Positions 10,309 to 57,861 of a stretch of DNA of 64,000 nt are shown here, piece by piece. A program made the position numbers and the translations under genes. The stretch covers positions 24,997 to 88,996 of the forward strand of contig JBARQV010000029.1 in assembly GCA_049643885.1 (NCBI GenBank). The letters are read 5' to 3'. Position 1 is the stretch's first letter, and every line of letters begins with the position of its first letter. The notes beneath the pieces were generated by a model. It did not search any database and had not been told where the DNA came from. It worked only from the letters and a program-made list of their open reading frames with translations. The DNA comes from Candidatus Omnitrophota bacterium (GTDB taxonomy: Bacteria > Omnitrophota > Gorgyraeia > Tantalellales > Tantalellaceae).

Positions 10309-10322
10309 GCTTCCGCTTTCCT

Positions 10323-10370
10323 CCACACTCTCCCGAGTGTGGTATCCATTCCCCACACGGAGGGGTGGGG
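10323..10370. repeat. Bipartite hairpin element, family 3 copy a: a variable 8-bp stem hairpin followed by GTATCCATTCCCCAC-loop-GTGGGG.
   Basis: The same architecture and conserved GTATCCATTCCCC core appear at 23913-23960. Both copies sit a few nt upstream of a start codon and overlap its SD. Confidence 0.6.
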
Positions 10371-11057
10371 TTATTTGATCCCCAGATCCTTATGAACCTG
10401 TCCAAGAACGATGACATCCCTGGCGGTCTCTTTTTTTATATAATCCCTGAAATATCCCGTCATCTCTTCATCTGGTTCCCTGACTCGGCCATCGACCGGA
10501 GTAACCGGCTGCAAGACCACGGTGACCTTCCCTTTAAGACGCCCGATTATCGATCCCATCCGTTTCACGTCGTCCATGGTAGTGCTGTCGGTAATGACGG
10601 CTTTAGTTATCAGTTCCTTCCGCGACGCTATTTCGGCGAACCTTCGATGCTCGTCCCACAGGGCTCTATTGCCGGTCGAGGACGGGAGTTTAAAATCCAT
10701 GGCTACTACATCCACTTTGTCGACGAGTTGCTCCATCTCGTCCGGTAGCGACCCGTTGGTCTCCAGATAAACGGGTTTGGGCCTGTGGGCCTTATAAAGG
10801 GAAATAAAGCCCTCCAGGAACTCACGGTATAACAACGGTTCCCCGCCGGTGAGGGCCAGTTCACTGTAATCATCACCGAAATCCAGGACCCGGCTGAAAA
10901 GCCCCTCCCGGGTAAGCGACTTATAGCTTTCCAGGATGGTATCGCAAAAAACACAACTTAAGTTGCAGCCGAAAAACCTCACAAAGAGCTGACGGCTCCC
11001 CACATACGGGCCTTCACCCTGGCATGACAAAAAAATCTCAGAAACTTTAGCCTGCAT
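10371..11057 (-). CDS. queE: 7-carboxy-7-deazaguanine synthase (radical SAM)
   Basis: N-terminus FLSCQGEG with a CxxxCxxC-type cluster motif FGCNLSCVFCDT. Confidence 0.9.
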   Translation of the reverse strand: MQAKVSEIFLSCQGEGPYVGSRQLFVRFFGCNLSCVFCDTILESYKSLTREGLFSRVLDFGDDYSELALTGGEPLLYREFLEGFISLYKAHRPKPVYLETNGSLPDEMEQLVDKVDVVAMDFKLPSSTGNRALWDEHRRFAEIASRKELITKAVITDSTTMDDVKRMGSIIGRLKGKVTVVLQPVTPVDGRVREPDEEMTGYFRDYIKKETARDVIVLGQVHKDLGIK

Positions 11058-16720: not shown

Positions 16721-17752
16721 TTATTTTTCCATTATTTTTGATACTGCCTCTACGGCATCCTCGACGGAAACCGCGCTGAGGCATTTGAAACCTTTGTCGC
16801 AATAATGCGCTAGGCATTTTTCACAGCCAACGTCTTTATGCAAAACCACGTCCCTGTCCCCCATCGGCCCCCACCTTTTCGGCGAAAGTCCTGGATCTTT
16901 CCTGCCGAATATGACAACGACCGGGGTATTCACGGCCACACTTACATGCACCGGACCGGAATCATTGGATATGAACACACTGCACCTGGAAAGAAGCTCG
17001 GCAAGTTCCCCTATCCTCAGCATCCCGGTCAGGTCCACAGCTTTGCTTCTCATGTTAGATAAGACCGACTTGCTGAACTCCTCGGTCTGGTCACCCCCGA
17101 CAATGACTATGCGGCAACCGTACTTACCGGCGAGAACATCCGCGACTTCGGCGAATCTTTCCGGCATCCACCTTTTTGAAGGACAACTGGCACCAGGGTG
17201 TATGGCAATAAGCGTCCCGTTTATGCCGGAATCCCTGAAAACCGAATCTACAAGACGCTTATCGCTTTCGGACATGGTCATATACGGCTTGCGGACCGCT
17301 CCCGAAACATCGAACCCGGCTTTTTCTAAAAGGTCAAAATTATAATCTACTTCGTGCCTTGCGCCACCCTGTTTGATGTGTCCGATCCGCCGGGTCAGCA
17401 TCCATCCCAGTTTCCGGTCGTAACCTATCCTTACCGGGATGCCGGCCAGAAGCATCATCACATGGACCCTGTTGGTCGGGTGAAGGGCTATACCGATATC
17501 GAACTTTTTCTTCCGGAGTTGCAGCGCGAATTTTACCGTGCTCCAGAAACTCTTCTGCAGTCCGTATTTATCATACAATATCACTTCGTCAAGATGGGGA
17601 TTATTAGCGACCAGATCCCTGTTTTCAGGCCTTACCATGAATGCTATGTGCGCGCCGGGAAACAACTTACGCATATGGCGTATCACTGGCGTGGAGAGAA
17701 CGACGTCCCCTAACCTGTCAGTCCTTGTGATCAATATCTTTTTCGGCTTCAT
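16721..17752 (-). CDS. ADP-heptose:LPS heptosyltransferase (GT9)
   Basis: GT9 family, as in WaaC/WaaF/WaaQ. The start is probably MMKPKKILI. The ORF track extends 21 nt into the upstream repeat, to 17773. Confidence 0.8.
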
Positions 17753-17776
17753 CATAAACTTAACATCCAGCATCCA

Positions 17777-17866
17777 GTGTGCGGGTCCTGTCGCTCAGTG
17801 CCCTGCGCGCCTCCGCGCCACTGGCTTGTGCGATGCTCGGACACTGTAGCGCCACCCGCCCCCACG
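17777..17866. repeat. GC-rich structured element, family 1 copy 1 (about 90 bp), in the 5' leader of a GT9 gene.
   Basis: About 90% identical to 19578-19665. It has an imperfect long dyad (GCGGGT...CAGTG/CACTG...ACCCGC) around an internal GCGCG-GAG-GCGCGC stem. Confidence 0.7.
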
Positions 17867-17873
17867 AATCCAA

Positions 17874-17902
17874 ATTCTAAACAATACCAAATTTCTATAC
17901 AA
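17874..17902 (-). promoter_or_regulatory. Candidate sigma-70 promoter TTGTAT-N17-TAGAAT, read on the minus strand, that would transcribe repeat copy 1 as the 5' leader of the GT9 gene.
   Basis: Hexamers and spacing read from the sequence. I have no expression evidence. Confidence 0.35.
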
Positions 17903-18069
17903 AGGTCATCAGGGAATCAGATTACCAGGAAGCAGGATTCTGGATATCAGGCAAGAATTCTTCCTAATAAACTGATCATCTGATATCCTGCCCCCTGATA
18001 CACTGTTAACCTGATATCCCATTTTATATCCAATATCCGCTATCTGTCTTCTGCCTTCTGTCTTCTGAA
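17903..18069. promoter_or_regulatory. Repeat-rich noncoding region: three CCTGATATCC/GGATATCAGG motifs, an AAGAATTCTT palindrome, and the direct repeat CAGAAGACAGA x2 when read on the minus strand.
   Basis: Seen in the sequence. A noncoding gap of about 165 bp is large for this compact region. Confidence 0.3.
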
Positions 18070-18583: not shown

Positions 18584-19558
18584 TTATCCCCCCAACAGCT
18601 CTTTCGCTGCTTTAAAAACTTCCTCGACAGTAATCCGACTTATGCATCCCTCGTCGGGGCCAATAGAACATAATGCCTTCCCGCAAGGACGGCATGATAG
18701 CAATGGTTTGATGACCTTGCTTTTCTCAGATAAAGGTCCGTACCTTTCTTCGTCAGAAGGTCCGAAAATAGCTACCGTTGCAACGTTGGCCATGCTGGCC
18801 ATATGCAGCGGGGCGCTGTCGTTAGTTATAACCAGGTCGCAGCGCCTCATGATCTCAAAAAGACTGCCCAGGGTCGTCCTGCAACAAAGATCCTGCACCT
18901 TACTTTTAACGGAACTTACCACCTTCCGGACAGTTTCCCTGTCATCCTCATTTCCGCAAACCAGAACATCGCAATCAAGTTCACTCACAAGCCTGTCCGC
19001 AAGAGCGGCGAACTTACCGGAATCCCATCTTTTAAGGTGGCTCTTGGCGCCGGGATTCAAAGTCACAGTTTTCTTTTTGCGTCCGGAAGATAAAACCTGG
19101 TCAGCGAAACGCCTGTCTTCGTCCAAAACGGGGAGAAAAAACCTTATCCTGGAAAAAGGCTCGATCCCGAGCCCCGCGAGTTTCGCAAGATGTTCCTTGC
19201 TTTTATGGCGTCTTCTATTTGAAAGATCGAAAATACCCGTCCTGAAACGGGCGCCGGAAAGATACGGGATAAGTGAATTTTTCAGATCGACCACCATATC
19301 GTATTTCTTACGCCGTATTTCAAGGATATTCTTCAATCTATCTGCTAATGATGAACGTTTTTTGTGCACTTTGACCTCGCGGACCTTGGGATGCGCTGCA
19401 AATATATCCCGTCCCGGGGAACCTGTGATAATGTCAACGCTTGCCCCGGGAAACTCATCACAAAGTTTCTCCAAAACCGGAGTAGTGAGCAGGATATCGC
19501 CGAGATTGCTCAGTGTAATGAATAGAATCGATTTCACGTTGTTTTTATCGGGTTTCAT
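18584..19558 (-). CDS. ADP-heptose:LPS heptosyltransferase family glycosyltransferase (GT9)
   Basis: GT9 fold. The start is probably MKPDKNNVKSILFI. The ORF-track N-terminus (to 19675) is read-through of repeat copy 2. Confidence 0.8.
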   Translation of the reverse strand: MKPDKNNVKSILFITLSNLGDILLTTPVLEKLCDEFPGASVDIITGSPGRDIFAAHPKVREVKVHKKRSSLADRLKNILEIRRKKYDMVVDLKNSLIPYLSGARFRTGIFDLSNRRRHKSKEHLAKLAGLGIEPFSRIRFFLPVLDEDRRFADQVLSSGRKKKTVTLNPGAKSHLKRWDSGKFAALADRLVSELDCDVLVCGNEDDRETVRKVVSSVKSKVQDLCCRTTLGSLFEIMRRCDLVITNDSAPLHMASMANVATVAIFGPSDEERYGPLSEKSKVIKPLLSCRPCGKALCSIGPDEGCISRITVEEVFKAAKELLGG

Positions 19559-19577
19559 GTCTAATCCAGTCTCAATT

Positions 19578-19665
19578 GGGCGGGGCCTGTCGCTCAGTGT
19601 CCTGCGCGCCTCCGCGCCACTGGCTTGTGCGGTGCTCGGACACTGCCGCGCCACCCGCCCCCCCC
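19578..19665. repeat. GC-rich structured element, family 1 copy 2, in the 5' leader of a second GT9 gene.
   Basis: About 90% identity to 17777-17866, including the flanking TTGGAT. Confidence 0.7.
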
Positions 19666-19682
19666 AATGATCCAACTACAAA

Positions 19683-21819: not shown

Positions 21820-23909
21820 CTCATCACTTCCATTACCGCGTTAAAAACTTCCTGCGGCTCAACTGAACTTATACACTTCACTCCCTTGCGGCACACCGGC
21901 TTGTAACAGGGCGAGCACTTTATCTTTTTATATATGACCCTGCATTTTTTCGCCGGCGGGAGGTGCTTGTCAGGATCAGTCGGACCGAAAATGGCCACGA
22001 ACGGCGTCCCGGTCGCTATCGCGACATGCATGGGAGAACTGTCACCTGTCACCAGCGCGTTGCACCGTTTAACAAGACTCACCAGCCGCGCAATATTCGT
22101 CTTGCCCACGGCGTTGATGGGTTTGGCCGTGGTCATCTTCATGAATTCCTGCGCTTTCCTCTCATCGTCTTTTGTCCCGAGAAGGACGACCCGCGTCCCT
22201 TCCTTCTCGGCAAGAAGTTCTGTCAGCTCTACCATCTTTTCCGGTTCCCAGTTCTTCGTCTTCCACCTTCGACTGGCGGAAAGACTGAGGGCTACCAGCT
22301 TCTGGTCTTTTTTTAGCCAGTTATCTCTCAAGAAACTTTCCGCCCAGACCCCGCTTTTGCTGTCTTCCCATAACTCGAGATCATGTTCCAGGTTCATTAT
22401 GCCCAAAAGCCCCAAAACGCGGGCCTGATGTTTTATCGGTTCCACCGACTTATCAGGCAGGCTGATCTTATGATTCAAAAGAAAACTCAGCTTACGGTTA
22501 TCATACCCATATCTTCCGGGGATGCCGCTCAAAAAAGCCAGCAAATGGCTTTTCCGGTTATTCTGCAGATCTATGGAGATATCGAATTCTTCCGAGCACA
22601 ACCTTCTGGCCAGGGCCAGGAACCCGGGGCCCCGGTCCCGTCCCCTGAAATCACAGGTCAGAACATCGTCTATGTACGGACAATGATCGAGGACCTCCCT
22701 GAACCTGACATCTACCAGGACTTTTATCTCGGCTTTCTTGAATTTGTTCCTCATGGCTTTGAGCGAAGGAATACTCAGGATCACGTCTCCGAGGGCGCTT
22801 ATCTTGAACACAAGTATTCTCTTTGTCTCCAGGACCTGTCTATACGTCTCCAGGGTCATGTCCATTACTTTGGATAATGAAAAATTTTCCTCGACGCGTT
22901 TCCTGGCATTCTGGGCTATTTTCTGCATCAGCCCGGGATCATCCAGGTAACCCATGATCTTTTCCGCCATATCACTCGGGTTGCCTGGTTCGCATAAAAG
23001 GCCGGTAACGCCGTCATCAATGTTCTCCGCCGCGCCGCCGACCCGGGTAGCGACAACCGGGACTCCTCTGGCCATGGCTTCTATTATCGACCGGCCGAAT
23101 GCTTCCTGCTCCTTGTTCGCTGAAACAAGGATGTCGACTTCCTTAAGGACCTCTGCCACGTCTTTGCCGCTTTCAATGAACTTTACGTTCCCTTCAAGCG
23201 TAAAACGCCGTATGGCAAAGTCGATCTTCTTCATGTAATCACTGCCGGCAGAATACCGGTCCCCCATAAGTATTATTTCGACGTTGTTCTTCTTCCTTAA
23301 AACACGGGAAGCAGCCTTCAGGAAGTCAAGGTGCCCTTTCAGCGGGACAAAACGTGATATCATGGCTACCCGGAAAACCTTGTCTTTTCTGCTTGAGGGA
23401 GAGATGAAAGAATACTTTTCCAGGTCCACTCCTCTCGGAATGATCTTCATCTTCCCCGGCTGGACACCAAAATTATCTTTCATGTGCCGGGCCATCATTT
23501 CGCCGGCCACGATGACTACCCTGCCCCATCCCATCACCCGGCTGATAAGATGCTTCTTGTAATGCCCGTGCGCAGTGGTCACGAACTTCCTCCGCGTGGA
23601 ACGAGCGGCAAAATACCCGGTAAGGGCGGGAATCCTGCTCCTAGCATGGACTATATCGATATTCTCCCGCCTGATTATTCCGCGTAATTTAAAATAGCAA
23701 TAGACCATGGTGAAAGGATTCTTGCGGCCTACCGGCAGAATATACTGCCGCGCGCCGATGGCGGCAAGATCCCGTTCCAATCTTCCTCCCCCGGAAACGA
23801 CCACGGCCTTATGGCCGTTTAATGCGAGGTGCCTGGCGACTTCGACAGTGCTCTTCTCAACACCGCCGATATCCAGTTTTGGAACTAATTGTAATACGTT
23901 CATAGCCAT
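21816..23909 (-). CDS. Bifunctional glycosyltransferase: N-terminal GT4 domain fused to a C-terminal GT9 heptosyltransferase-like domain.
   Basis: 697 aa. Residues 1 to about 350 are GT4-like (EAFGRSIIEAMARGVPVV). Residues from about 355 to 697 are GT9-like (ILVFKISALGDVILSIP ... CSPCYKPVC). Confidence 0.75.
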   Translation of the reverse strand: MAMNVLQLVPKLDIGGVEKSTVEVARHLALNGHKAVVVSGGGRLERDLAAIGARQYILPVGRKNPFTMVYCYFKLRGIIRRENIDIVHARSRIPALTGYFAARSTRRKFVTTAHGHYKKHLISRVMGWGRVVIVAGEMMARHMKDNFGVQPGKMKIIPRGVDLEKYSFISPSSRKDKVFRVAMISRFVPLKGHLDFLKAASRVLRKKNNVEIILMGDRYSAGSDYMKKIDFAIRRFTLEGNVKFIESGKDVAEVLKEVDILVSANKEQEAFGRSIIEAMARGVPVVATRVGGAAENIDDGVTGLLCEPGNPSDMAEKIMGYLDDPGLMQKIAQNARKRVEENFSLSKVMDMTLETYRQVLETKRILVFKISALGDVILSIPSLKAMRNKFKKAEIKVLVDVRFREVLDHCPYIDDVLTCDFRGRDRGPGFLALARRLCSEEFDISIDLQNNRKSHLLAFLSGIPGRYGYDNRKLSFLLNHKISLPDKSVEPIKHQARVLGLLGIMNLEHDLELWEDSKSGVWAESFLRDNWLKKDQKLVALSLSASRRWKTKNWEPEKMVELTELLAEKEGTRVVLLGTKDDERKAQEFMKMTTAKPINAVGKTNIARLVSLVKRCNALVTGDSSPMHVAIATGTPFVAIFGPTDPDKHLPPAKKCRVIYKKIKCSPCYKPVCRKGVKCISSVEPQEVFNAVMEVMR

Positions 23910-23912
23910 CCT

Positions 23913-23960
23913 CTACAGGCTTACGCCTGTAGTATCCATTCCCCCCACGAAAGTGTGGGG
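23913..23960. repeat. Bipartite hairpin element, family 3 copy b: CTACAGGC-TTAC-GCCTGTAG followed by GTATCCATTCCCCCCAC-GAAAGT-GTGGGG.
   Basis: It shares the GTATCCATTCCCC core and the two-hairpin layout with 10323-10370, and sits directly upstream of the ATG of the GT4-GT9 gene. Confidence 0.6.
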
Positions 23961-25901
23961 TCAAAATAGTTTGTACATTTTTTCCAGAATACGTTTGTCG
24001 TCTTCCGGCAAAACGTGTTCGATCTTGCCATTAATATAATTTTCCGCCGCTTCGGGTATACGCTCGGGATCGACGACTTTAAGATACTTCTTCTTCTCAA
24101 GACCCCTGACAAACCTTTCGTACTTTGTCAGGCGGCTCTTTTTCTTGTCCGGCATGAACACCAGAACCGGCTTACCGGAAGAGACGGCTTCCGAGACCAT
24201 TGAAATACTCTCACCCGAAACAACTACCACGTCGCTGAAAGCAAGTATCTTTTCCACGGTGTGCTTGTCCGGGTCATCCTTACCGGAAACAAACTTTAGA
24301 CAACGGGGGTAACCTCCGAAAGTTTCCTTGATAACAGCCTCGGCCGCGTCAGGTGTTCTCCTGGAGGTCGTCACGTAAAAAAACCCGTCCACCCGTTCGC
24401 CTGCTCCTTTGATGCCAGAGACCACCGAGCGCATAAGCCCTTCCCCGAAACTGAAATACTGATTGTCTCCTCCGAGCAGCACCCCTATGCGCGCTCCCTC
24501 CTTCGCTTCTTGCTCTTGCCCGGACCGGGTGCCCCATGAAGCGATCTCATCGGGCTCAATGGAATTCGGAGCAAGGTCCGTCATAATGACATTCTCTCCC
24601 TTGATCTTCCTGGCAAGACAATCGTGCCTGGGGATCACTACAAGGTCGAATTTCCTGCGGCTCCAGGCCCCGGGATCCAGGACAGCAAGGTTACGGGCGT
24701 TGTTTTCTATCTTCAAGAACAGATTCACTCCGGACAAGGTCGAACCGCAGCTGATAACGACATCCGCGTAACGGCCCACCGCCTCCTCGTAGCTTTTTCT
24801 TTCCAGAAACCAGGAAAGACGTCTTGCCTCGCCCTGGCAATCAAAGGTAAAAAGCGGATTCAAAAGATTGAACACGGCCTTGGCGAACTTGTTCTTGAAT
24901 CTGATCTCGACGATATCCACCTGGGTCTGGTCGGGTGAAAAACCTTCGTTTTCGCGATAACGCTTAAGCTGCTTTACCACCGCGAGAGACTGTTTCAGGT
25001 GCCCTTTCTTTCCGTCATCGAGGACCAGTATCTTTTTCACTGGGGTAAGCTTCCACTTCTTATGCATCCAGAACCATTGCTCCGGATGTTCTCTGACGTG
25101 CTTTTCAAGAAGACGGTGGTATTCTTCCATATAAGGCACAATGTCTTCTTTTTTGCCTATTATCATCGGTTTTTCCAGGATTATCTTTTGATATGGGCCT
25201 TTGATCCTGTGAATAAAAGCCGGTACGACCCAGGCCCCGCTTGACTGGGCGAAACGGAAAGGACCCACGGCAGTTGACGCGGGACGGTCGAAAAGTTCCA
25301 AAAGTTTACCGTTTTGGCCTGCATTCTGGTCTCCCAATAACCCCACGCCGCCTCCATTTCGCAGGATACGGAAAACATTTTTTATATCCATACCTTTCCG
25401 AATAACAAAATTGCCTTTTGACTCGCGCAATAAGTTAAAAAGCTCATTAAGGCGTTTCATCTTCTGATCCCTTGCCACAAGATGAAGTGGATACCCGTTC
25501 ATCACGCTTTCCACGCACATCAGCTCCCAGTTACCAAAATGCGCAGAAATTAGCAGCATCCCGTTCGGGTTTTTTGCCGCCTGATCAATATACTCCCTGT
25601 TTTGAGTTTCGATGTATTTGTCAAGATAAGCTTTATCCACTTTCGTCATTGAAATCAATTCAATCAAAGTCTGGCCCGCGTTCCTGTAAACTTCCTTTGT
25701 AAGGCGTTTTATTTCCAGCGGGCTTTTCCCCCGCCAAAAAGCAGCCTTGAGATTGGCATAAGTTATTCTTTTCCTTTTGCCGTTCAGGTAATACGCAAGA
25801 TTTCCGAGGTTGCGTCCAACCCAAAGGTTAAACCTCATCGGCATCAGATGAAAAATTTTATTAGCCCCTATCGCCAGATATGACGCTATTAAGTCTATCA
25901 A
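23961..25901 (-). CDS. Lipid A late acyltransferase (LpxL/HtrB family, N-terminal about 300 aa) fused to an uncharacterised C-terminal domain of about 340 aa, possibly a GT-B-like ELM1/DUF1022-like domain.
   Basis: The N-terminal half has the LpxL hallmarks HFGNWE and EQWFWMHKKWK. The C-terminal half begins ILVLDDGKKGHLKQSLAVV, has Rossmann-like segments (VVVVSGESISMVSEAVSSGKPVLVF) and no P-loop. The ELM1-like assignment is from memory, so its confidence is moderate. Confidence 0.65.
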   Translation of the reverse strand: MIDLIASYLAIGANKIFHLMPMRFNLWVGRNLGNLAYYLNGKRKRITYANLKAAFWRGKSPLEIKRLTKEVYRNAGQTLIELISMTKVDKAYLDKYIETQNREYIDQAAKNPNGMLLISAHFGNWELMCVESVMNGYPLHLVARDQKMKRLNELFNLLRESKGNFVIRKGMDIKNVFRILRNGGGVGLLGDQNAGQNGKLLELFDRPASTAVGPFRFAQSSGAWVVPAFIHRIKGPYQKIILEKPMIIGKKEDIVPYMEEYHRLLEKHVREHPEQWFWMHKKWKLTPVKKILVLDDGKKGHLKQSLAVVKQLKRYRENEGFSPDQTQVDIVEIRFKNKFAKAVFNLLNPLFTFDCQGEARRLSWFLERKSYEEAVGRYADVVISCGSTLSGVNLFLKIENNARNLAVLDPGAWSRRKFDLVVIPRHDCLARKIKGENVIMTDLAPNSIEPDEIASWGTRSGQEQEAKEGARIGVLLGGDNQYFSFGEGLMRSVVSGIKGAGERVDGFFYVTTSRRTPDAAEAVIKETFGGYPRCLKFVSGKDDPDKHTVEKILAFSDVVVVSGESISMVSEAVSSGKPVLVFMPDKKKSRLTKYERFVRGLEKKKYLKVVDPERIPEAAENYINGKIEHVLPEDDKRILEKMYKLF

Positions 25902-28184: not shown

Positions 28185-28192
28185 GTTTTATT

Positions 28193-28231
28193 TGATCCCG
28201 GATCCCGCTTTTGGCGGGTCCGGGATGACAT
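28193..28231. repeat. Palindromic hairpin element, family 2 copy D: TGATCCCGGATCCCGC-TTTTG-GCGGGTCCGGGATGACAT.
   Basis: The conserved termini GATCCCGG / CCGGGATGACAT recur at five or more sites. The inner stem varies with compensatory changes. Confidence 0.7.
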
Positions 28232-28264
28232 ATTTTTATTTTTCGACGAATTATGTGATCCTTC

Positions 28265-34914: not shown

Positions 34915-35685
34915 TTACATGGTAAAAAATAAATATTTTAGGATCTTATCCCCGTATAACAAACTGATAAACGCGCCGAGCGAAAGATACGGCGCGTAAG
35001 GGATCATTTCCCTTTTCTTGAAAAGTTTCATGTACAATCCAAATCCCAGGCCCAGGACCGGCGCCATGAAAAAAGCCAAAATAACGAGTTTCCAGCCCAG
35101 AAATGCCCCGACCATGGCCATGAGCTTTACGTCTCCGCCTCCCAGGCTTTCCTTCCTGAATATCATCTCTCCCATGAAACCCAGCAGGAACATGCTACCT
35201 CCCCCAGCTACCACGCCGGTCAGGGAGTTCAAAAGAGCTTTCCAGACCACCCCGCCGGATAGAAAAGCGGAAACGCCCACCAATATGATCCCGAGAGGGA
35301 TACCCGGCAGGCTGAGGACATCCGGCACCTCCTGCTTTTCTATGTCTACGAACACGATGATGATCAAAATATACGTCAAGATCAAGTAAGCAAAAAACTG
35401 GGCGGAAAGCGAAAAATAATATAAAAGAACGATCGTGCTCAGGGCGGAAACCATCTCCACCAGAAAATATCTCAGCGATATCCTTATGCCGCAATAATGG
35501 CACTTGGCTCCCAGGACAATGTAGCTTACCAAGGGTACGTTATCATACCACCGGATCGGGTTCCTGCATTCCGGACAGTATGAACGGGGTTTGACTATAG
35601 ACCTACCCCTCGGTATACGGTAGATGCACACGTTCAGGAAACTGCCTATTATTGCACCGAATATAAACGCTATTACGTATTCCAT
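34915..35685 (-). CDS. pilD: Prepilin (type IV leader) peptidase / N-methyltransferase, A24 family
   Basis: 256 aa with a zinc-binding CPxC...CxxC N-terminus and multiple TM helices. Confidence 0.85.
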   Translation of the reverse strand: MEYVIAFIFGAIIGSFLNVCIYRIPRGRSIVKPRSYCPECRNPIRWYDNVPLVSYIVLGAKCHYCGIRISLRYFLVEMVSALSTIVLLYYFSLSAQFFAYLILTYILIIIVFVDIEKQEVPDVLSLPGIPLGIILVGVSAFLSGGVVWKALLNSLTGVVAGGGSMFLLGFMGEMIFRKESLGGGDVKLMAMVGAFLGWKLVILAFFMAPVLGLGFGLYMKLFKKREMIPYAPYLSLGAFISLLYGDKILKYLFFTM

Positions 35686-35695
35686 AACCAGACAT

Positions 35696-35840
35696 ATGTC
35701 ATCCCGGACGAGCCCGGAAATAATATGTCATCCCGGAATCGCGCCAAAGGCGCGATATCCGGGACCAAGTAAAATTATTATTTGATCCCCGCTTTCGCGG
35801 GGATGACATACTTCTAAATCGGCGAATTCCGGGATGACAT
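35696..35840. repeat. Composite palindromic element, family 2 copy A (about 145 bp), with four GTCATCCCGG/CCGGGATGACAT termini and nested hairpins.
   Basis: It shares ATCCGGGACCAAGTAAAATTATTAT(T/G)TGATCCC with copy B at 45279-45375, and fills the pilD-aroE intergenic gap up to the aroE stop. Confidence 0.7.
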
Positions 35841-41691: not shown

Positions 41692-41700
41692 CCGGCCGAA

Positions 41701-41740
41701 CTTCATCCCGGGCGAGGCCGTTAGGCCGAGTCCCGGGATC
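41701..41740. repeat. Family 2 hairpin element, copy E, in inverted orientation: CTTCATCCCGGGCGAGGCCGTTAGGCCGAGTCCCGGGATC.
   Basis: Its reverse complement matches copy B's GATCCCGGATCTCGGCCTACGGCCTCGCCCGGGATGACAT. Confidence 0.6.
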
Positions 41741-41783: not shown

Positions 41784-42923
41784 TCATTTGTAAATGCGGG
41801 GGACTCTGTCCGTTATGGACGATACGATCTCATAAGGTATGGTACCGGCAAGTCTTGCGACTTTCTCTACAGGGACATAAGACTTGCCCTGCCTTCCGAT
41901 CAACACCACTTCATCGCCTATCTTGACGTCTTTGACATGCCCTACGTCCAGGAGCGCCTGGTCCATGGTGACCACCCCTACTACCTTAACATGCTTACCC
42001 TTCACCAGGGCTTCGGCTTTATTCGAAAGTATGCGTCCATAACCGTCGGCATAGCCGATCGGGATAGTGGCGATCTTTGTATCTTTCCGGGTAATATGTG
42101 TTCTCCCGTAACTTATCGATCTGCCCGCCGGCGTGTCTTTGAGATAGACTATCCTGGTCTTAAGGTTCATTACCGGTTTGAGCTTGAACTTCATCCGGAA
42201 ACTTTCTTTCGGATATATACCATAAATAAGTATCCCCGGCCTTACCAGGTTCAGGTGCGATCCTTTCCAGTCGACTACCGCGATACTGTTAGCTGCGTGT
42301 TTATGTTTGACCCGGATGTCCTCTTTTTCCAGTTTTTCGATAATTTTTTCAAAATGATTGATCTGTGAACGGGTAAAGGATTTATCCCTGCCGGCGGAAG
42401 AAAAATGCGTATAAATACCTTCCAGCTCTATCGCTTTTTTCCCGCTGACTTTCTTTATAAATTCAAGAGCTTCCTCGTGCCATATACCTATCCGTCCCAT
42501 TCCGGTATCGATCTTTATATGAACTTTCGGACGTCTTTTTAACTTTTTGGCTATGGCCATAAGGTCCTTTAGCAACCTCTCATCGGCTAGCGTAAGTGTG
42601 ATCCCGCGCTTCACGGCCGCTTCGGCTTCGTCTTTAAGCACCGACCCCATGGCCAGTATGGGAACTTTTATGCCTGAAGCCCGCAGCTTAAGCGCTTCAT
42701 CGACTGTAGCTACCCCGAGGTAAGTTATCCCGTTCTCGACAAGGACCTTGCTTACCCGGCATATACCATGACCGTAAGCGTTAGCTTTGACTACCGCCAT
42801 TATCCCAACGTCCCCGCTCAACAGCTCACGGATACGGTCCAGGTTATAGCTGATCGCCTTCAGATCTATTTCCGCCCACGTAGGCCTGTAACTTCCGTTC
42901 TTCATATCCATTACCCATTCCAT
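41784..42923 (-). CDS. alr: Alanine racemase
   Basis: 379 aa with PLP-lysine motif AVVKANAYGHG. The true start may be 12 to 18 nt inside, at MDMKNG. Confidence 0.9.
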   Translation of the reverse strand: MEWVMDMKNGSYRPTWAEIDLKAISYNLDRIRELLSGDVGIMAVVKANAYGHGICRVSKVLVENGITYLGVATVDEALKLRASGIKVPILAMGSVLKDEAEAAVKRGITLTLADERLLKDLMAIAKKLKRRPKVHIKIDTGMGRIGIWHEEALEFIKKVSGKKAIELEGIYTHFSSAGRDKSFTRSQINHFEKIIEKLEKEDIRVKHKHAANSIAVVDWKGSHLNLVRPGILIYGIYPKESFRMKFKLKPVMNLKTRIVYLKDTPAGRSISYGRTHITRKDTKIATIPIGYADGYGRILSNKAEALVKGKHVKVVGVVTMDQALLDVGHVKDVKIGDEVVLIGRQGKSYVPVEKVARLAGTIPYEIVSSITDRVPRIYK

Positions 42924-42924
42924 T

Positions 42925-43067
42925 GTGCGGGTCCTGTCGCGAGGTGTCCTGCGCGCATCCGCATTTCATTTGTGCTGTACCCGGGTGCAAGCTATACAGT
43001 GCAGTATATTCCCTACCAGGGCCCCTCCGCCCGGTGTGGATCCTCCCTGTACGGGAACATACTGCAC
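42925..43067. repeat. Family 1 copy 3 in the alr leader: the first 39 bp or so match copies 1 and 2 (GTGCGGGTCCTGTCGC.AGGTGTCCTGCGCGC.TCCGC), followed by a unique highly structured segment.
   Basis: Shared core as stated. The unique part has inverted repeats GTGCAGTATATTCCC / GGGAACATACTGCAC and CTGTA...TACAG. Confidence 0.55.
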
Positions 43068-43120
43068 TATACTCTTTACTCCTTTATGTATGCACTCGAT
43101 CATCGAATACCCAACATCCA

Positions 43121-44250: not shown

Positions 44251-44264
44251 ATCAATTTGGATGT

Positions 44265-44345
44265 ATGTCATCCCCGCGAAAGCGGGGATCACATAATAAT
44301 CTTACTTGATCCCGGATCCCGCCTGAGGCGGGTCCGGGATGACAT
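44265..44345. repeat. Family 2 element copy C: ATGTCATCCCCGCGAAAGCGGGGATCACAT ... TGATCCCGGATCCCGC-CTGAG-GCGGGTCCGGGATGACAT.
   Basis: Two hairpin modules with the conserved termini, in the tsaE-thiL intergenic region. Confidence 0.7.
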
Positions 44346-44368
44346 ATTTTCATTTCCTTCCAACTTCC

Positions 44369-45278: not shown

Positions 45279-45375
45279 GATGTCATCCCGGACGAGCCCG
45301 AAGGGCTCGATCCGGGACCAAGTAAAATTATTATGTGATCCCGGATCTCGGCCTACGGCCTCGCCCGGGATGACA
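45279..45375. repeat. Family 2 composite element, copy B (about 97 bp).
   Basis: ATGTCATCCCGGACGAGCCC-GAA-GGGCTCGATCCGGGACCAAGTAAAATTATTATGTGATCCCGGATCTCGGCCTACGGCCTCGCCCGGGATGACAT. It overlaps the mtnA 3' end and the thiL ORF-track start. Confidence 0.7.
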
Positions 45376-46398
45376 TGCTTTACGTATCTTCTCCCTGTCC
45401 GGTTTCCTGATTGTCCCCCGCTCCGTGATGATCGCCGTGATCAATTTCGCCGGTGTCACGTCGAACGCGGGATTCTTTACATCCACATTTTTCGGCATTA
45501 TGTATTCTTTTCCTATTTTCCTGACCTCAGATGCAGGGCGCTCTTCGATGGGTATCGCCGAGCCGCCGGGCAACGCGAGGTCAAATGTAGAAACAGGAGC
45601 CGCGACGTAAAATGGTATCTTGTGATAAGCGGCCAATACGGCCAGGTTGTACGTGCCTATTTTGTTCGCCGTGTCACCGTTAGCGGCGATGCGGTCTGCC
45701 CCCACTATGACGGCATCGAATTCTCTCTTACCCATCAAAGAAGCCGCCATGTTATCGCATATAACCGTTACCGGCACGCCCTCTTTCATCAGTTCCCACG
45801 CGGTAAGTCTGGCCCCCTGCAGCCTTGGCCGCGTCTCGTCGACGTAAACCCTGCGAACCTTCTTTCCGGCAGAGAAAACCACGCCCAGGGCCGTGCCGTA
45901 TCCGCCCGTGGCCAGCCCTCCCGCGTTGCAGTGAGTCAGGACAACCGCTCCTTCCGGTATCAACTTTTTGCCGTATTCTCCTATCCTGCGGCAGACCCGC
46001 GTATCTTCTCGAAGTATCGAATGGGCTTCTTCCAGAATGATCTTCTTGATCCGCTCTACCTTCTTTTCCCTGTTCCTGACAACTACACTGGCCACGCGTT
46101 CAAGGGCCCAAAAAAGATTACGCGCGGTCGGCCGGGCGCCGGCAAGATATTTTATCGTTCTATCCAGGTCCCTGCTAAAAGCGGAAAAAGTCTTCGCCCT
46201 GCTTTTCCTCGCGCCCAAGTATACCCCGTACGCGCCGGCTATGCCGATCGCCGGCGCTCCACGGACCTTCATCTCCCTTATGGCTTCGAACACGTCTTTC
46301 ACATTTCTGCAGGCGATATAACTGGTCTTGCCGGGAAGGAGCCTCTGGTCTATCAACTCTAATTTTGCGTTTTTCCAGCGGATCGGTTCAACCTTCAT
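45331..46398 (-). CDS. mtnA: S-methyl-5-thioribose-1-phosphate isomerase (eIF-2B alpha/beta/delta-like)
   Basis: 355 aa with motif GAPAIGIAGAYG. The last approximately 15 codons run through repeat B. Confidence 0.8.
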   Translation of the reverse strand: MKVEPIRWKNAKLELIDQRLLPGKTSYIACRNVKDVFEAIREMKVRGAPAIGIAGAYGVYLGARKSRAKTFSAFSRDLDRTIKYLAGARPTARNLFWALERVASVVVRNREKKVERIKKIILEEAHSILREDTRVCRRIGEYGKKLIPEGAVVLTHCNAGGLATGGYGTALGVVFSAGKKVRRVYVDETRPRLQGARLTAWELMKEGVPVTVICDNMAASLMGKREFDAVIVGADRIAANGDTANKIGTYNLAVLAAYHKIPFYVAAPVSTFDLALPGGSAIPIEERPASEVRKIGKEYIMPKNVDVKNPAFDVTPAKLITAIITERGTIRKPDREKIRKACHPGRGRRPRSGIT

Positions 46399-55938: not shown

Positions 55939-56625
55939 CTAACTTCCAATATCCAATATCGCCTCAGCCAGAGCCAAATCCTCAGGTACCGTCACCTTGA
56001 TATTCTTCTTGTCACCCGGAACTATGCGGACTTCCGCACCCAGACGTTCCACAAAACTGGAGTCATCAGTCGCATCCGACTCCTCAAACCTTTCATAAGC
56101 CTTTCTGATGATCCCGTACCTGAACGCCTGAGGGGTCTGGGCTTCCCAGAGAGCACTCCTGTCAACGGTCCCTTCGATAATACCTCCGTTTGCCACTTTC
56201 TTTACCGTAGATGTACAGGGAATACCCAATATAGCGGCCCCGGACCTGCGGGCCTCTTCCACCACTGACCGTATCGATTTTTCCGTCAAGAAAGGACGTG
56301 CCCCGTCGTGTATCAGGATGATATCGTCATCAGCGGCCTTTATTTTTTTCAGGCCGTTGACAACGGACTTTGTCCTTGTCGCACCGCCGGGAACTATACC
56401 AGTGACCTTTTTCAACCCGTATTTATCGACCGCTTGCTGCGCTTCCCGGATATATTTTTCTTTGACGACCAGGATCACGTCATCGATAAGGCCGGACTTC
56501 TCCAGCGATGACAAAGCGTAAAAAATAAGCGGCCTGTTCTTAAGTTCTAAAAAGGGCTTATCGTCCCTCTTGTTAGACATTCTCCGACCGGAACCCGCTG
56601 AGGGGATTATAGCTCTGACTCTCAT
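55939..56625 (-). CDS. ispD: 2-C-methyl-D-erythritol 4-phosphate cytidylyltransferase
   Basis: 228 aa with IIPSAGSGRRM. Confidence 0.9.
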   Translation of the reverse strand: MRVRAIIPSAGSGRRMSNKRDDKPFLELKNRPLIFYALSSLEKSGLIDDVILVVKEKYIREAQQAVDKYGLKKVTGIVPGGATRTKSVVNGLKKIKAADDDIILIHDGARPFLTEKSIRSVVEEARRSGAAILGIPCTSTVKKVANGGIIEGTVDRSALWEAQTPQAFRYGIIRKAYERFEESDATDDSSFVERLGAEVRIVPGDKKNIKVTVPEDLALAEAILDIGS

Positions 56626-56640
56626 ATCATCGACCTGTTA

Positions 56641-57861
56641 TCAAGACTGCTGATGTTTTTGCCCGGGTTGCTGGTCTCTTTGCCCTGGCTGCTGGTCTCT
56701 TTGCCCTGGCTGCTGGTCTCTTTGCCCTGGCTGCTGGCCTCTTTGACCTGGCTGCTGGCCTCTTTGCCCTGGCTGCTGGCCTCTTTGCCCTGGCTGCTGG
56801 CCTCTTTGACCTGGCTGCTGGCCTCTTTGCCCTGGCTGCTGGCCTCTTTGAACGGGTCCTTCGACCAGGTTGGCGAATATCATTCTGCCCGCAGAGGTCT
56901 GGAGCACGCTCGTCACGGTCACATCGACGTTTTTCCCGATGAGCCTCTTGGCATTATCTATTACGATCATTGTCCCATCATTCAGAAAGGCCAGGCCCTG
57001 ATTTTTTTCCTTACCCTCTTTCCTTATAGAGACGGTCATCTGCTCCCCCGGAAGGACTACAGGCCGCAGTGCGTTGGCCAGGTCGTTGATGTTAAGGACC
57101 GAGACCCCTTCAAGCTTTGCGACCTTGTTCAGATTGAAATCGTTAGTCAATACCGGGCAATCCAGGACTTTCGACAACCGCACGAGTTTTGCGTCCACTT
57201 CCCTGATCTCGGGGAAAGATTCGTCATGTATTATAACTTCAGAACCGGGGATTTGTTTCAGCCTGTTCAGCATGTCCAACCCCCTGCGTCCCCTGGCTCT
57301 TTTTGACTCATCGGAGCTGTCCGCGACTTGCTGCAGCTCCTGGAGTATAAAACGGGGGACGACAAGTTTCCCTAACAGGAACCCCGTTTCGCAGATGGAC
57401 GCGATCCTCCCGTCTATGATGACGCTGGTATCGAGCAGAAAGAACTGTTCCCTCTGGTCTTCCCGCGAAAACCTCACGTAAGGAATGATGAGGTTGAATT
57501 CGTCTTTGCCCTTTATCGAAATGATCATTCCCAGATAGCAGAACACGACGGTGAAAATTATCTGAAAGGTAGAATAAATACTTTCCTCCATCGGTATCAG
57601 GCGTATGATACGGGTCAACATCCAGGCGATAAAAAAACCGAATACCAGGCCGAACACCGTGACCGAAAGGTTCCTCAGCGAAACACGCCTTAATTTCACT
57701 TCAACAAATATGATGCACATCGCCACGAAAAAACCTATACCGGCGCCGAGCATGGCGCCTTTAGAGGTAAGGTCCGTAAGGACATACCCCAGGTAATACC
57801 CGCATACAACGCTAAGAATTGTGAAAAATATCCGTAAAAATGTGATTGTAAACACTTTCAC
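56641..57861 (-). CDS. Membrane-anchored PIN plus TRAM domain protein (YacL-like) with a C-terminal 9x heptapeptide repeat QRGQQPG.
   Basis: N-terminal TM helices, a PIN core (FLLDTSVIIDGRI) and a TRAM-like beta-barrel segment. It sits upstream of ispD-ispF, as yacL does in Bacillus. Confidence 0.75.
   Translation of the reverse strand: MKVFTITFLRIFFTILSVVCGYYLGYVLTDLTSKGAMLGAGIGFFVAMCIIFVEVKLRRVSLRNLSVTVFGLVFGFFIAWMLTRIIRLIPMEESIYSTFQIIFTVVFCYLGMIISIKGKDEFNLIIPYVRFSREDQREQFFLLDTSVIIDGRIASICETGFLLGKLVVPRFILQELQQVADSSDESKRARGRRGLDMLNRLKQIPGSEVIIHDESFPEIREVDAKLVRLSKVLDCPVLTNDFNLNKVAKLEGVSVLNINDLANALRPVVLPGEQMTVSIRKEGKEKNQGLAFLNDGTMIVIDNAKRLIGKNVDVTVTSVLQTSAGRMIFANLVEGPVQRGQQPGQRGQQPGQRGQQPGQRGQQPGQRGQQPGQRGQQPGQRDQQPGQRDQQPGQRDQQPGQKHQQS
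56662..56850. repeat. Nine tandem copies of a 21-bp coding repeat (consensus CCCTGGCTGCTGGCCTCTTTG), encoding (QRGQQPG)9 on the minus strand.
   Basis: Seen directly. The units differ by 1 or 2 nt. Confidence 0.9.

Follow-up and report, generated by a model that had tools for sequence, protein, structure and literature searches.

The window (the complete 64,000-nt stretch of DNA analysed here) carries about 61 genes, all of them on the minus strand and separated by a median spacer of 15 nt. Ten spacers are of at least 70 nt, and most of these ten contain a repeat of one family or another. The repeat under study, named F1, has two copies in an LPS-core cluster whose order, in the direction of transcription (decreasing coordinates), is GT4, hepIII, hepII, a macro-domain protein gene (macro), hepI, thioredoxin (trx), rfaE, kdsB and kdsA. 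Copy 2 occupies almost the entire 124-nt spacer that runs from the stop of hepIII (19683) to the start of hepII (19558). Copy 1 forms the start-proximal portion of the 314-nt macro-hepI spacer, and copy 3 that of the 215-nt tsaB-alr spacer. A fourth copy was found outside the window, in a divergent spacer upstream of a comF-family gene. The assignment of the genes downstream of the window copies as two GT9 heptosyltransferases and alr, made in the initial annotation, was confirmed. The features considered were:

16721..17755, minus strand: hepI, GT9 heptosyltransferase gene downstream of copy 1, called as 344 aa in NCBI MAGs, with a weak SD
17772-17885, minus strand: F1 copy 1, full length, in the macro-hepI spacer (nhmmer E = 7.6e-37)
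17779-17866, minus strand: GC-rich hairpin core of copy 1
17872-17885, minus strand: AT-rich 5' end of copy 1, TTTAGAATTTGGAT
17874..17902, minus strand: putative promoter TTGTAT-N17-TAGAAT, with TAGAAT inside the conserved 5' end of F1 and TTGTAT in flanking DNA
18584..19558, minus strand: hepII, GT9 heptosyltransferase gene downstream of copy 2
19568-19681, minus strand: F1 copy 2, full length, in the hepIII-hepII spacer (nhmmer E = 6.5e-36)
41784..42923, minus strand: alr (alanine racemase), downstream of copy 3, with candidate ATGs at 42923, 42911 and 42905
42984..42919, minus strand: F1 copy 3, 66 nt, 3' part (model positions 49-116), 5' of alr (nhmmer E = 1.4e-7)
L034:10026-10111, sense to the comF-family gene: F1 copy 4, 5' part only (model positions 6-87; nhmmer E = 3.9e-18)
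GTGNGCGGGNCC / GGGGCGGGTGG: F1 sequences to compare with the inverted repeats of a candidate parent IS

F1 is a real repeat: a 44-nt probe taken from copy 1 matched copy 2 at all but two positions, and in 100 shuffles that preserved dinucleotides no match arose. A repeat search of the window indicated 89% identity between copies 1 and 2 across 105 nt, and BLAST about 94% over an 83-nt core, in agreement with the value of about 90% proposed initially for the segments 17777-17866 and 19578-19665. The repeat search also returned a three-member 62-nt family with 42901-42962 among its members. The third copy, first described as a 39-nt segment at 42925-42963, is present, but its length had been underestimated; the 66 nt detected correspond to the 3' 60% of the element. 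Since the likeness of copies 1 and 2 continues 5' into an AT-rich end (TTAGAAnTTGGAT), the F1 unit is about 110-114 nt long, its limits being set by an HMM built from these two copies. The F1 cores contain 73-78% G+C, compared with 50% for the window.

Copy 4 was found with a profile of F1 translated in one sense frame and run against 1.84 billion representative proteins. The sole useful match, P0121, is a spurious 37-aa ORF on a contig that corresponds to scaffold_54 (L034) of the ENA assembly holding the window proteins. Over 52 nt, copy 4 was 96% identical to copy 1 and 94% identical to copy 2. L034 has 49% G+C and carries an ATCCCGG...CCGGGAT repeat also seen in the window, which places it in the same genome or in a very close one. 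The presence of a copy on another scaffold indicates that F1 is more than a local duplication. The F1 copies known from about 98 kb of this genome number four, each at its own locus, and are spread over two scaffolds. No further copies were found 7.6 kb and 6.2 kb past the window ends, and nhmmer --max at E up to 100 revealed no weak extra copies in the window, in L010-L033 or in L034. Exact patterns for the 3' and 5' halves had zero matches in 185,579 species-representative genomes, JGI metagenomes and IMG/VR; these scans detect exact matches only and would miss diverged relatives. Six-frame concatenated F1 peptides had no match in a 5.8-billion-protein index, a search so insensitive that it also missed P0001, a public partial protein with 23 residues identical to the query. 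A second translated query, made from three other open frames and also run as an insensitive word-index search, gave one candidate and no match. As far as public data show, F1 appears to be restricted to one Candidatus Omnitrophota lineage.

In each of the three window copies, 18-22 nt separate the end of the GC-rich core from a plausible ATG of the minus-strand gene that follows, bearing out their reported position directly upstream of minus-strand starts. All four F1 copies lie in sense orientation 5' of a start codon. This bias rests on n = 4 copies and runs in the direction that a functional leader would predict; however, where all genes point one way and spacers are of about 15 nt, an insertion that is tolerated can hardly avoid landing 5' of a start, and orientation carries little information. 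The upstream or downstream placement of additional elements varies between the F1 copies. The four downstream genes (two GT9, alr and comF family) are functionally unrelated. Three of them, hepI, hepII and alr, are envelope-related; the fourth belongs to the comF family.

The repeat also disturbs gene-start calls. The likely start of hepI is the ATG at 17755/17752 (MMKPKK), and the ATG at 17773 abuts the repeat. The true start of hepII is at 19558 (MKPDKNN), and ORFs of 356 to 363 aa run through the repeat. A 356-aa HepII is called by one pipeline, and P0001 begins with 29 repeat-derived residues; the initial annotation had anticipated such automated N-terminal extensions.

The SD complementarity of the four genes downstream of F1 is weak (-3 to -5 kcal/mol; comF at L034:10220, +1.8), the window median being about -7 kcal/mol. 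In relatives, orthologous hepII genes reach -6.4 to -7.2 kcal/mol. This difference suggests that F1 insertions may affect the expression of the downstream genes. Weak SDs were also seen at tsaE (44292), at thiL (45286) and at 35685, each directly after repeat modules. A separate feature of the window spacers is the motif TGGAT, found 18 times in sense and 4 times in antisense orientation; its density of 6.9 per kb compares with 1.5 per kb for coding sequence. Its enrichment is comparable with that of GGAGG, and it often lies 0-15 nt before starts, including those of all F1-flanked genes. TGGAT, which is present near both ends of F1, was considered as an F1 target-site duplication and dropped, since its distance from the F1 ends varies and it is enriched in all spacers.

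The window proteins were found, identical, on contigs of one ENA metagenome assembly and in several NCBI MAGs labelled Candidatus Omnitrophota. Of nine contigs from these independent assemblies, five break off inside copy 2 and one more does so within about 20 nt of it; further contigs stop at family B (described below) or at the ATCCCGG family. The contig ends at copy 2 fit a multi-copy repeat, although two nearby copies alone could explain breaks at short k-mers.

The nearest other HepII among 5.8 billion proteins was 69% identical. Three relatives, L010, L033 and L011 (69%, 67% and 58% amino-acid identity in HepII, respectively), keep the order GT4-hepIII-hepII-macro-hepI-trx-rfaE. In L010 and L011, the hepIII-hepII and macro-hepI junctions range from overlapping genes to gaps of about 25 nt, and F1 is absent. 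In L033 these junctions hold about 57 nt and 24 nt, respectively, of unrelated purine-rich sequence, again without F1. Both sites are filled in all assemblies of the same species. The absence of F1 from both orthologous junctions argues that copies 1 and 2 were inserted in this lineage, the comparison being made with relatives 58-69% identical, a distance at which exact insertion junctions are invisible. The HepI and HepII proteins are 28% identical to each other and the repeats about 94%, which rules out that F1 was duplicated along with the GT9 paralogs. The flanks of the F1 copies share nothing outside the element.

The hepIII-hepII junction of other Omnitrophota contains GC-rich hairpin repeats unrelated to F1 (L031:715-815, with GGGCAGGCCCCTGTGCCTGCCCTTGCCC present twice, and L032:4212-4310), which gene callers render as N-terminal extensions of HepII (P0014 and P0023). 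Their presence shows that such junctions accept insertions repeatedly.

On the sense strand, copy 1 forms the long imperfect hairpin that had been described for it (MFE -46.6 kcal/mol, z = -1.95), and copy 2 also folds into an imperfect hairpin (MFE -54.4 kcal/mol, z = -3.8). The plus strand folds equally well (z = -2.0 and -4.2), and copies 3 and 4 show no significant fold (z = +0.78 and -0.38). RNAalifold applied to copies 1 and 2 gave 28 consensus pairs in imperfect arms of about 25 nt. These copies differ by one compensatory pair (U-A to G-C) and by one U-A to U-G change that is paired on the sense-strand RNA only; across two full copies, such changes are an anecdote and no evidence of covariation. 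The whole window had no match in Rfam 15 at the gathering threshold. At E up to 10, the element regions gave sub-threshold matches only, none of them overlapping an F1 copy, and several were to miRNA-precursor (long-hairpin) families. No terminator-like site with a U tract was found at the F1 copies (3' flanks CACUGGAUGC, AAUUGAGAC and AAUGGAAUG), and a terminator or attenuator role was dropped because no U tract follows the stem. A coding role was also dropped, since the frames differ between copies and copies are truncated; the frames are open owing to G+C alone, and translated searches gave no protein family.

Copies 3 and 4 are complementary fragments of F1, each fused to a module of a second repeat, named family B. 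The copies of family B and of two other repeat families are:

42992-43078, minus strand: family-B hairpin repeat directly adjoining the 5' side of copy 3 (z = -7.1)
L034:10128-10214, plus strand: family-B copy
L034:10986-11066, minus strand: family-B copy
Window 28188-28241, 35681-35819, 41700-41720, 44255-44355 and 45280-45376: ATCCCGG REP/dRS3-like family
L025:1386-1480 and L034:8690-8795: ATCCCGG REP/dRS3-like family
Window 10319-10371 and 23909-23961, minus strand: D12, a two-copy family lying directly upstream of starts

At copy 3, a complete B hairpin is followed by the 3' part of F1; at copy 4, the 5' part of F1 is followed by the 3' half of B and then by a full B. Copy 4 turns into family B after ...GCGCGGAGG, the junction lying at a common GCGGAGG. 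Each of the three family-B copies forms a hairpin of about 85 nt (z = -6.3 to -7.1), and the 47-nt core is 100% invariant among them. The outer stems differ and yet pair, 7 of 28 pairs being compensatory among the three copies; family B therefore shows real covariation and is structurally more striking than F1. One family-B site lies at the 3' end of lptFG and two lie 5' of genes. The family is absent from Rfam, and its core pattern had zero matches in IMG/VR. SD-like GGAG loops were considered as a common functional motif and dropped, their pairing being inconsistent in family B.

Several further repeats were observed. The ATCCCGG family is abundant and REP- or dRS3-like (ATGTCATCCCGGA...(GC hairpin)...TCCGGGAT), occurring singly or as inverted doublets. 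It takes up several of the longest spacers, contig ends fall at it, and the tsaE ORF begins with its spurious translation product, the peptide 'IPAFAGMT'. D12 consists of two short hairpins with AAUGGAUA between them; the stems differ between the two copies and pair in both, and the 3' arm of the second hairpin provides an SD (GGAGGA / GAGGA). The remainder of the macro-hepI spacer (17890-18040, minus strand) contains a hairpin of about 150 nt (GGATATCAGG...CCTGATATCC, z = -2.4), preceded at 18040-18065 by a purine-rich repeat, CAGAAGACAGAAGGCAGAAGACAGA, with similar short repeats in spacers of L032 and L033. A tandem array of a 21-nt unit lies at 56605-56877 (nine overlapping 105-nt registers, 65-91% identity). 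It spans a stop-free stretch from the 5' end of ORF 55939-56625 to the 3' end of ORF 56641-57861, and a repeat of seven residues is its probable product, with putative gene boundaries in this stretch. Finally, the comF-lptG spacer holds an AT-rich long inverted repeat of about 230 nt (L034:11079-11308; AACAGCTCCACAAAAACAATAAAACC ... GGTTTTATTGTTTTTGTGGAGCTGTT), probably another MITE-like element.

According to the MITE definition used (PMC3184786), F1 has terminal inverted repeats around a short core with a stable fold, and its unit of about 110 nt is shorter than 400 bp and lacks a transposase gene. The four-copy alignment revealed no consistent direct repeat at the F1 ends that could be a target-site duplication, and no transposase was noticed among the called genes of about 98 kb of this genome. 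Copies 3 and 4 join modules of different families in varying order, as in mosaics of the BIME/NIME type. As for REPIN features, the hairpin and half copies are present, and GTAG occurs in copy 1 and is absent from copy 2. The marks of a riboswitch or leader, conservation upstream of orthologous genes together with covariation, were not seen for F1 in the relatives examined and the two full copies.

Taken together, these observations make it likely that F1 is a short, non-coding, species-restricted dispersed mosaic repeat of the MITE / ERIC / REPIN-BIME kind. This reading follows from the lineage-specific insertion and from near-identical copies beside unrelated genes on two scaffolds, as well as from the truncated and recombined copies, the palindrome, the lack of coding potential and the lack of a known RNA family. 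Of the two roles offered initially, the MITE-like insertion is the better supported, given the empty sites in relatives, the truncated mosaic copies and the copy on a second scaffold. F1 copies have been added to formerly tight gene junctions, and they decay or recombine with family B into mosaics. They are probably transcribed within the operon mRNA, as they lie between co-directional genes and are followed by no terminator. In that mRNA, each full copy would fold into a stable stem-loop located 18-22 nt ahead of the following start codon. If F1 behaves like ERIC, REP/BIME and Correia elements, its likely effects would be incidental: altered mRNA processing or stability, through an entry for RNase III or RNase E or through protection from exonucleases, and weakened translational coupling. 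Such effects would not amount to ligand- or signal-responsive control. Spread might occur through a transposase acting in trans (MITE style), through a RAYT/IS200-like single-strand mechanism, or through recombination.

The other role offered initially, a cis-regulatory leader RNA (a riboswitch, attenuator or protein-binding site) coordinating envelope genes through its sense-strand hairpin, is improbable. The sense orientation of all four copies 5' of start codons would agree with it, as would the envelope-related nature of three downstream genes out of four (hepI and hepII, for LPS heptosyltransferases, and alr), the weak SDs downstream, and a stable hairpin in which copies 1 and 2 differ by one compensatory pair and by one change that G-U pairing accommodates. 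However, F1 is missing from the same junctions in all relatives examined, nothing in Rfam matches it, copies 3 and 4 lack one arm and are unfolded, the plus strand folds as well as the sense strand, and the fourth downstream gene is of the comF family. Sense orientation is itself hardly informative where all window genes share one strand, and near-identical copies beside paralogs that are 28% identical point to recent spread rather than ancient conservation. A leader RNA is thus unsupported, F1 being unconserved across species and placed before unrelated genes.

Just as improbable is that F1 is a mobile expression module, in which the TAGAAT of F1 acts as a -10 and, with a -35 in the flanking DNA, forms a promoter, and/or the hairpin replaces the displaced SD in translation initiation. 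Genes receiving an insertion would thereby gain independent expression, as with some Correia elements. The conserved 5' end does contain a -10-like hexamer (TAGAAT in copy 1, TAGAAA in copy 4 and TGTAGT in copy 2), TTGTAT lies 17 nt upstream at copy 1, a transcript from that promoter would begin at the 5' edge of the hairpin, and the downstream genes are without a good SD. Yet TTGTAT-N17-TAGAAT, initially considered a plausible sigma-70 promoter, agrees with 8 of 12 consensus positions and was not flagged by a promoter scan, and promoter-like sites occur at the rate seen in shuffled sequence. Further, no matching -35 was seen at copies 2 or 4, and copy 3 is wholly without the 5' end.

A broader view, to which we give still less weight, is that F1, family B and the other hairpin families are mobile structured 5'-leader modules put to use by the cell. 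Sense insertion before starts that have lost a normal SD would then set translation or mRNA half-life gene by gene, within operons of a compact Omnitrophota genome that are otherwise tightly coupled. Selection at the RNA level would be suggested by the covarying family-B stems and by G-U pairs that form on the sense strand only. Weak SDs, a -10-like hexamer and the covariation of family B leave a modest probability for a role in expression; a sensor RNA is unsupported.

Least probable of all is that the copies are non-mobile relics of a few segmental duplications or gene conversions between spacers, with recombination maintaining their similarity. In favour of this view, just 1.8 kb separates copies 1 and 2, the F1/family-B junctions at GCGGAGG microhomology suggest recombination, no target-site duplication was found and few copies are known (translated searches gave almost none). 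Against it, the flanks have nothing in common outside F1, copy 4, from a different scaffold, matches copy 1 as closely as copy 2 does, and the four sites lie beside unrelated genes.

F1 has its main practical importance in assembly breaks and gene-start calls. It fragments MAG assemblies, and public protein sets contain wrongly extended N-termini and spurious small ORFs that derive from it (P0001 and P0121). Its copies could serve as strain markers. A compact Omnitrophota genome, with a median spacer of 15 nt, tolerates several families of structured mosaic intergenic repeats, and F1 has been inserted in the middle of an LPS-core operon, where it separates genes whose coupling in relatives is tight. 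Should the hairpins change processing or translation, such insertions would offer a quick route to rewired operon expression in an uncultured phylum.

F1 adds to a well-known kind of element in a host phylum that is poorly studied. The ERIC/IRU elements of Enterobacteriaceae are imperfect palindromes of about 127 bp, listed as MITEs (PMC3184786). F1 resembles them in size (about 110-127 nt), in being an imperfect palindrome that would give a long hairpin, in occupying intergenic spacers within transcription units and in having truncated or interrupted copies; its action, if any, would likewise be expected through mRNA processing or stability. Unlike ERIC, F1 has a much higher G+C content and belongs to a different phylum; the two show no evident sequence relationship, neither TA flanks nor a target duplication were seen for F1, and its known copies number four in about 98 kb. 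Effects on processing, stability or translational coupling are documented for ERIC, REP and Correia elements (PMC3184786).

F1 shares with REP, REPIN and BIME elements the form of extragenic GC-rich stem-loops and a hairpin of roughly 100 nt made of two inverted arms (PMC3116915, PMC3337134, PMC3184786). 'Singlet' half copies, mosaics with other motifs and the lack of an obvious target duplication are further traits in common with REPIN/BIME. The REPIN/RAYT system comprises two inverted short REP palindromes, a conserved GTAG, a RAYT gene and tens to hundreds of copies; in contrast, the arms of F1 are not two copies of a short palindromic REP. F1 copies also lie 5' of genes, whereas REP sequences mostly occupy 3' ends or the spacers of convergent gene pairs.

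Correia elements (CREE) are flanked by a TA target duplication and carry defined 26-nt terminal inverted repeats as well as an IHF site; F1 showed none of these features and has no sequence similarity to Correia elements. In architecture the two are alike, with a length of 100-150 nt and inverted ends. Correia elements are co-transcribed with their neighbours and can form promoters with flanking DNA; the former probably holds for F1 as well, and the latter might. Neisserial intergenic mosaic elements (NIMEs) combine repeat modules of different families. F1 resembles Correia elements and NIMEs in forming mosaic arrays with a second short inverted-repeat family, and the ATCCCGG...CCGGGAT family of the same genome is reminiscent of the neisserial dRS3.
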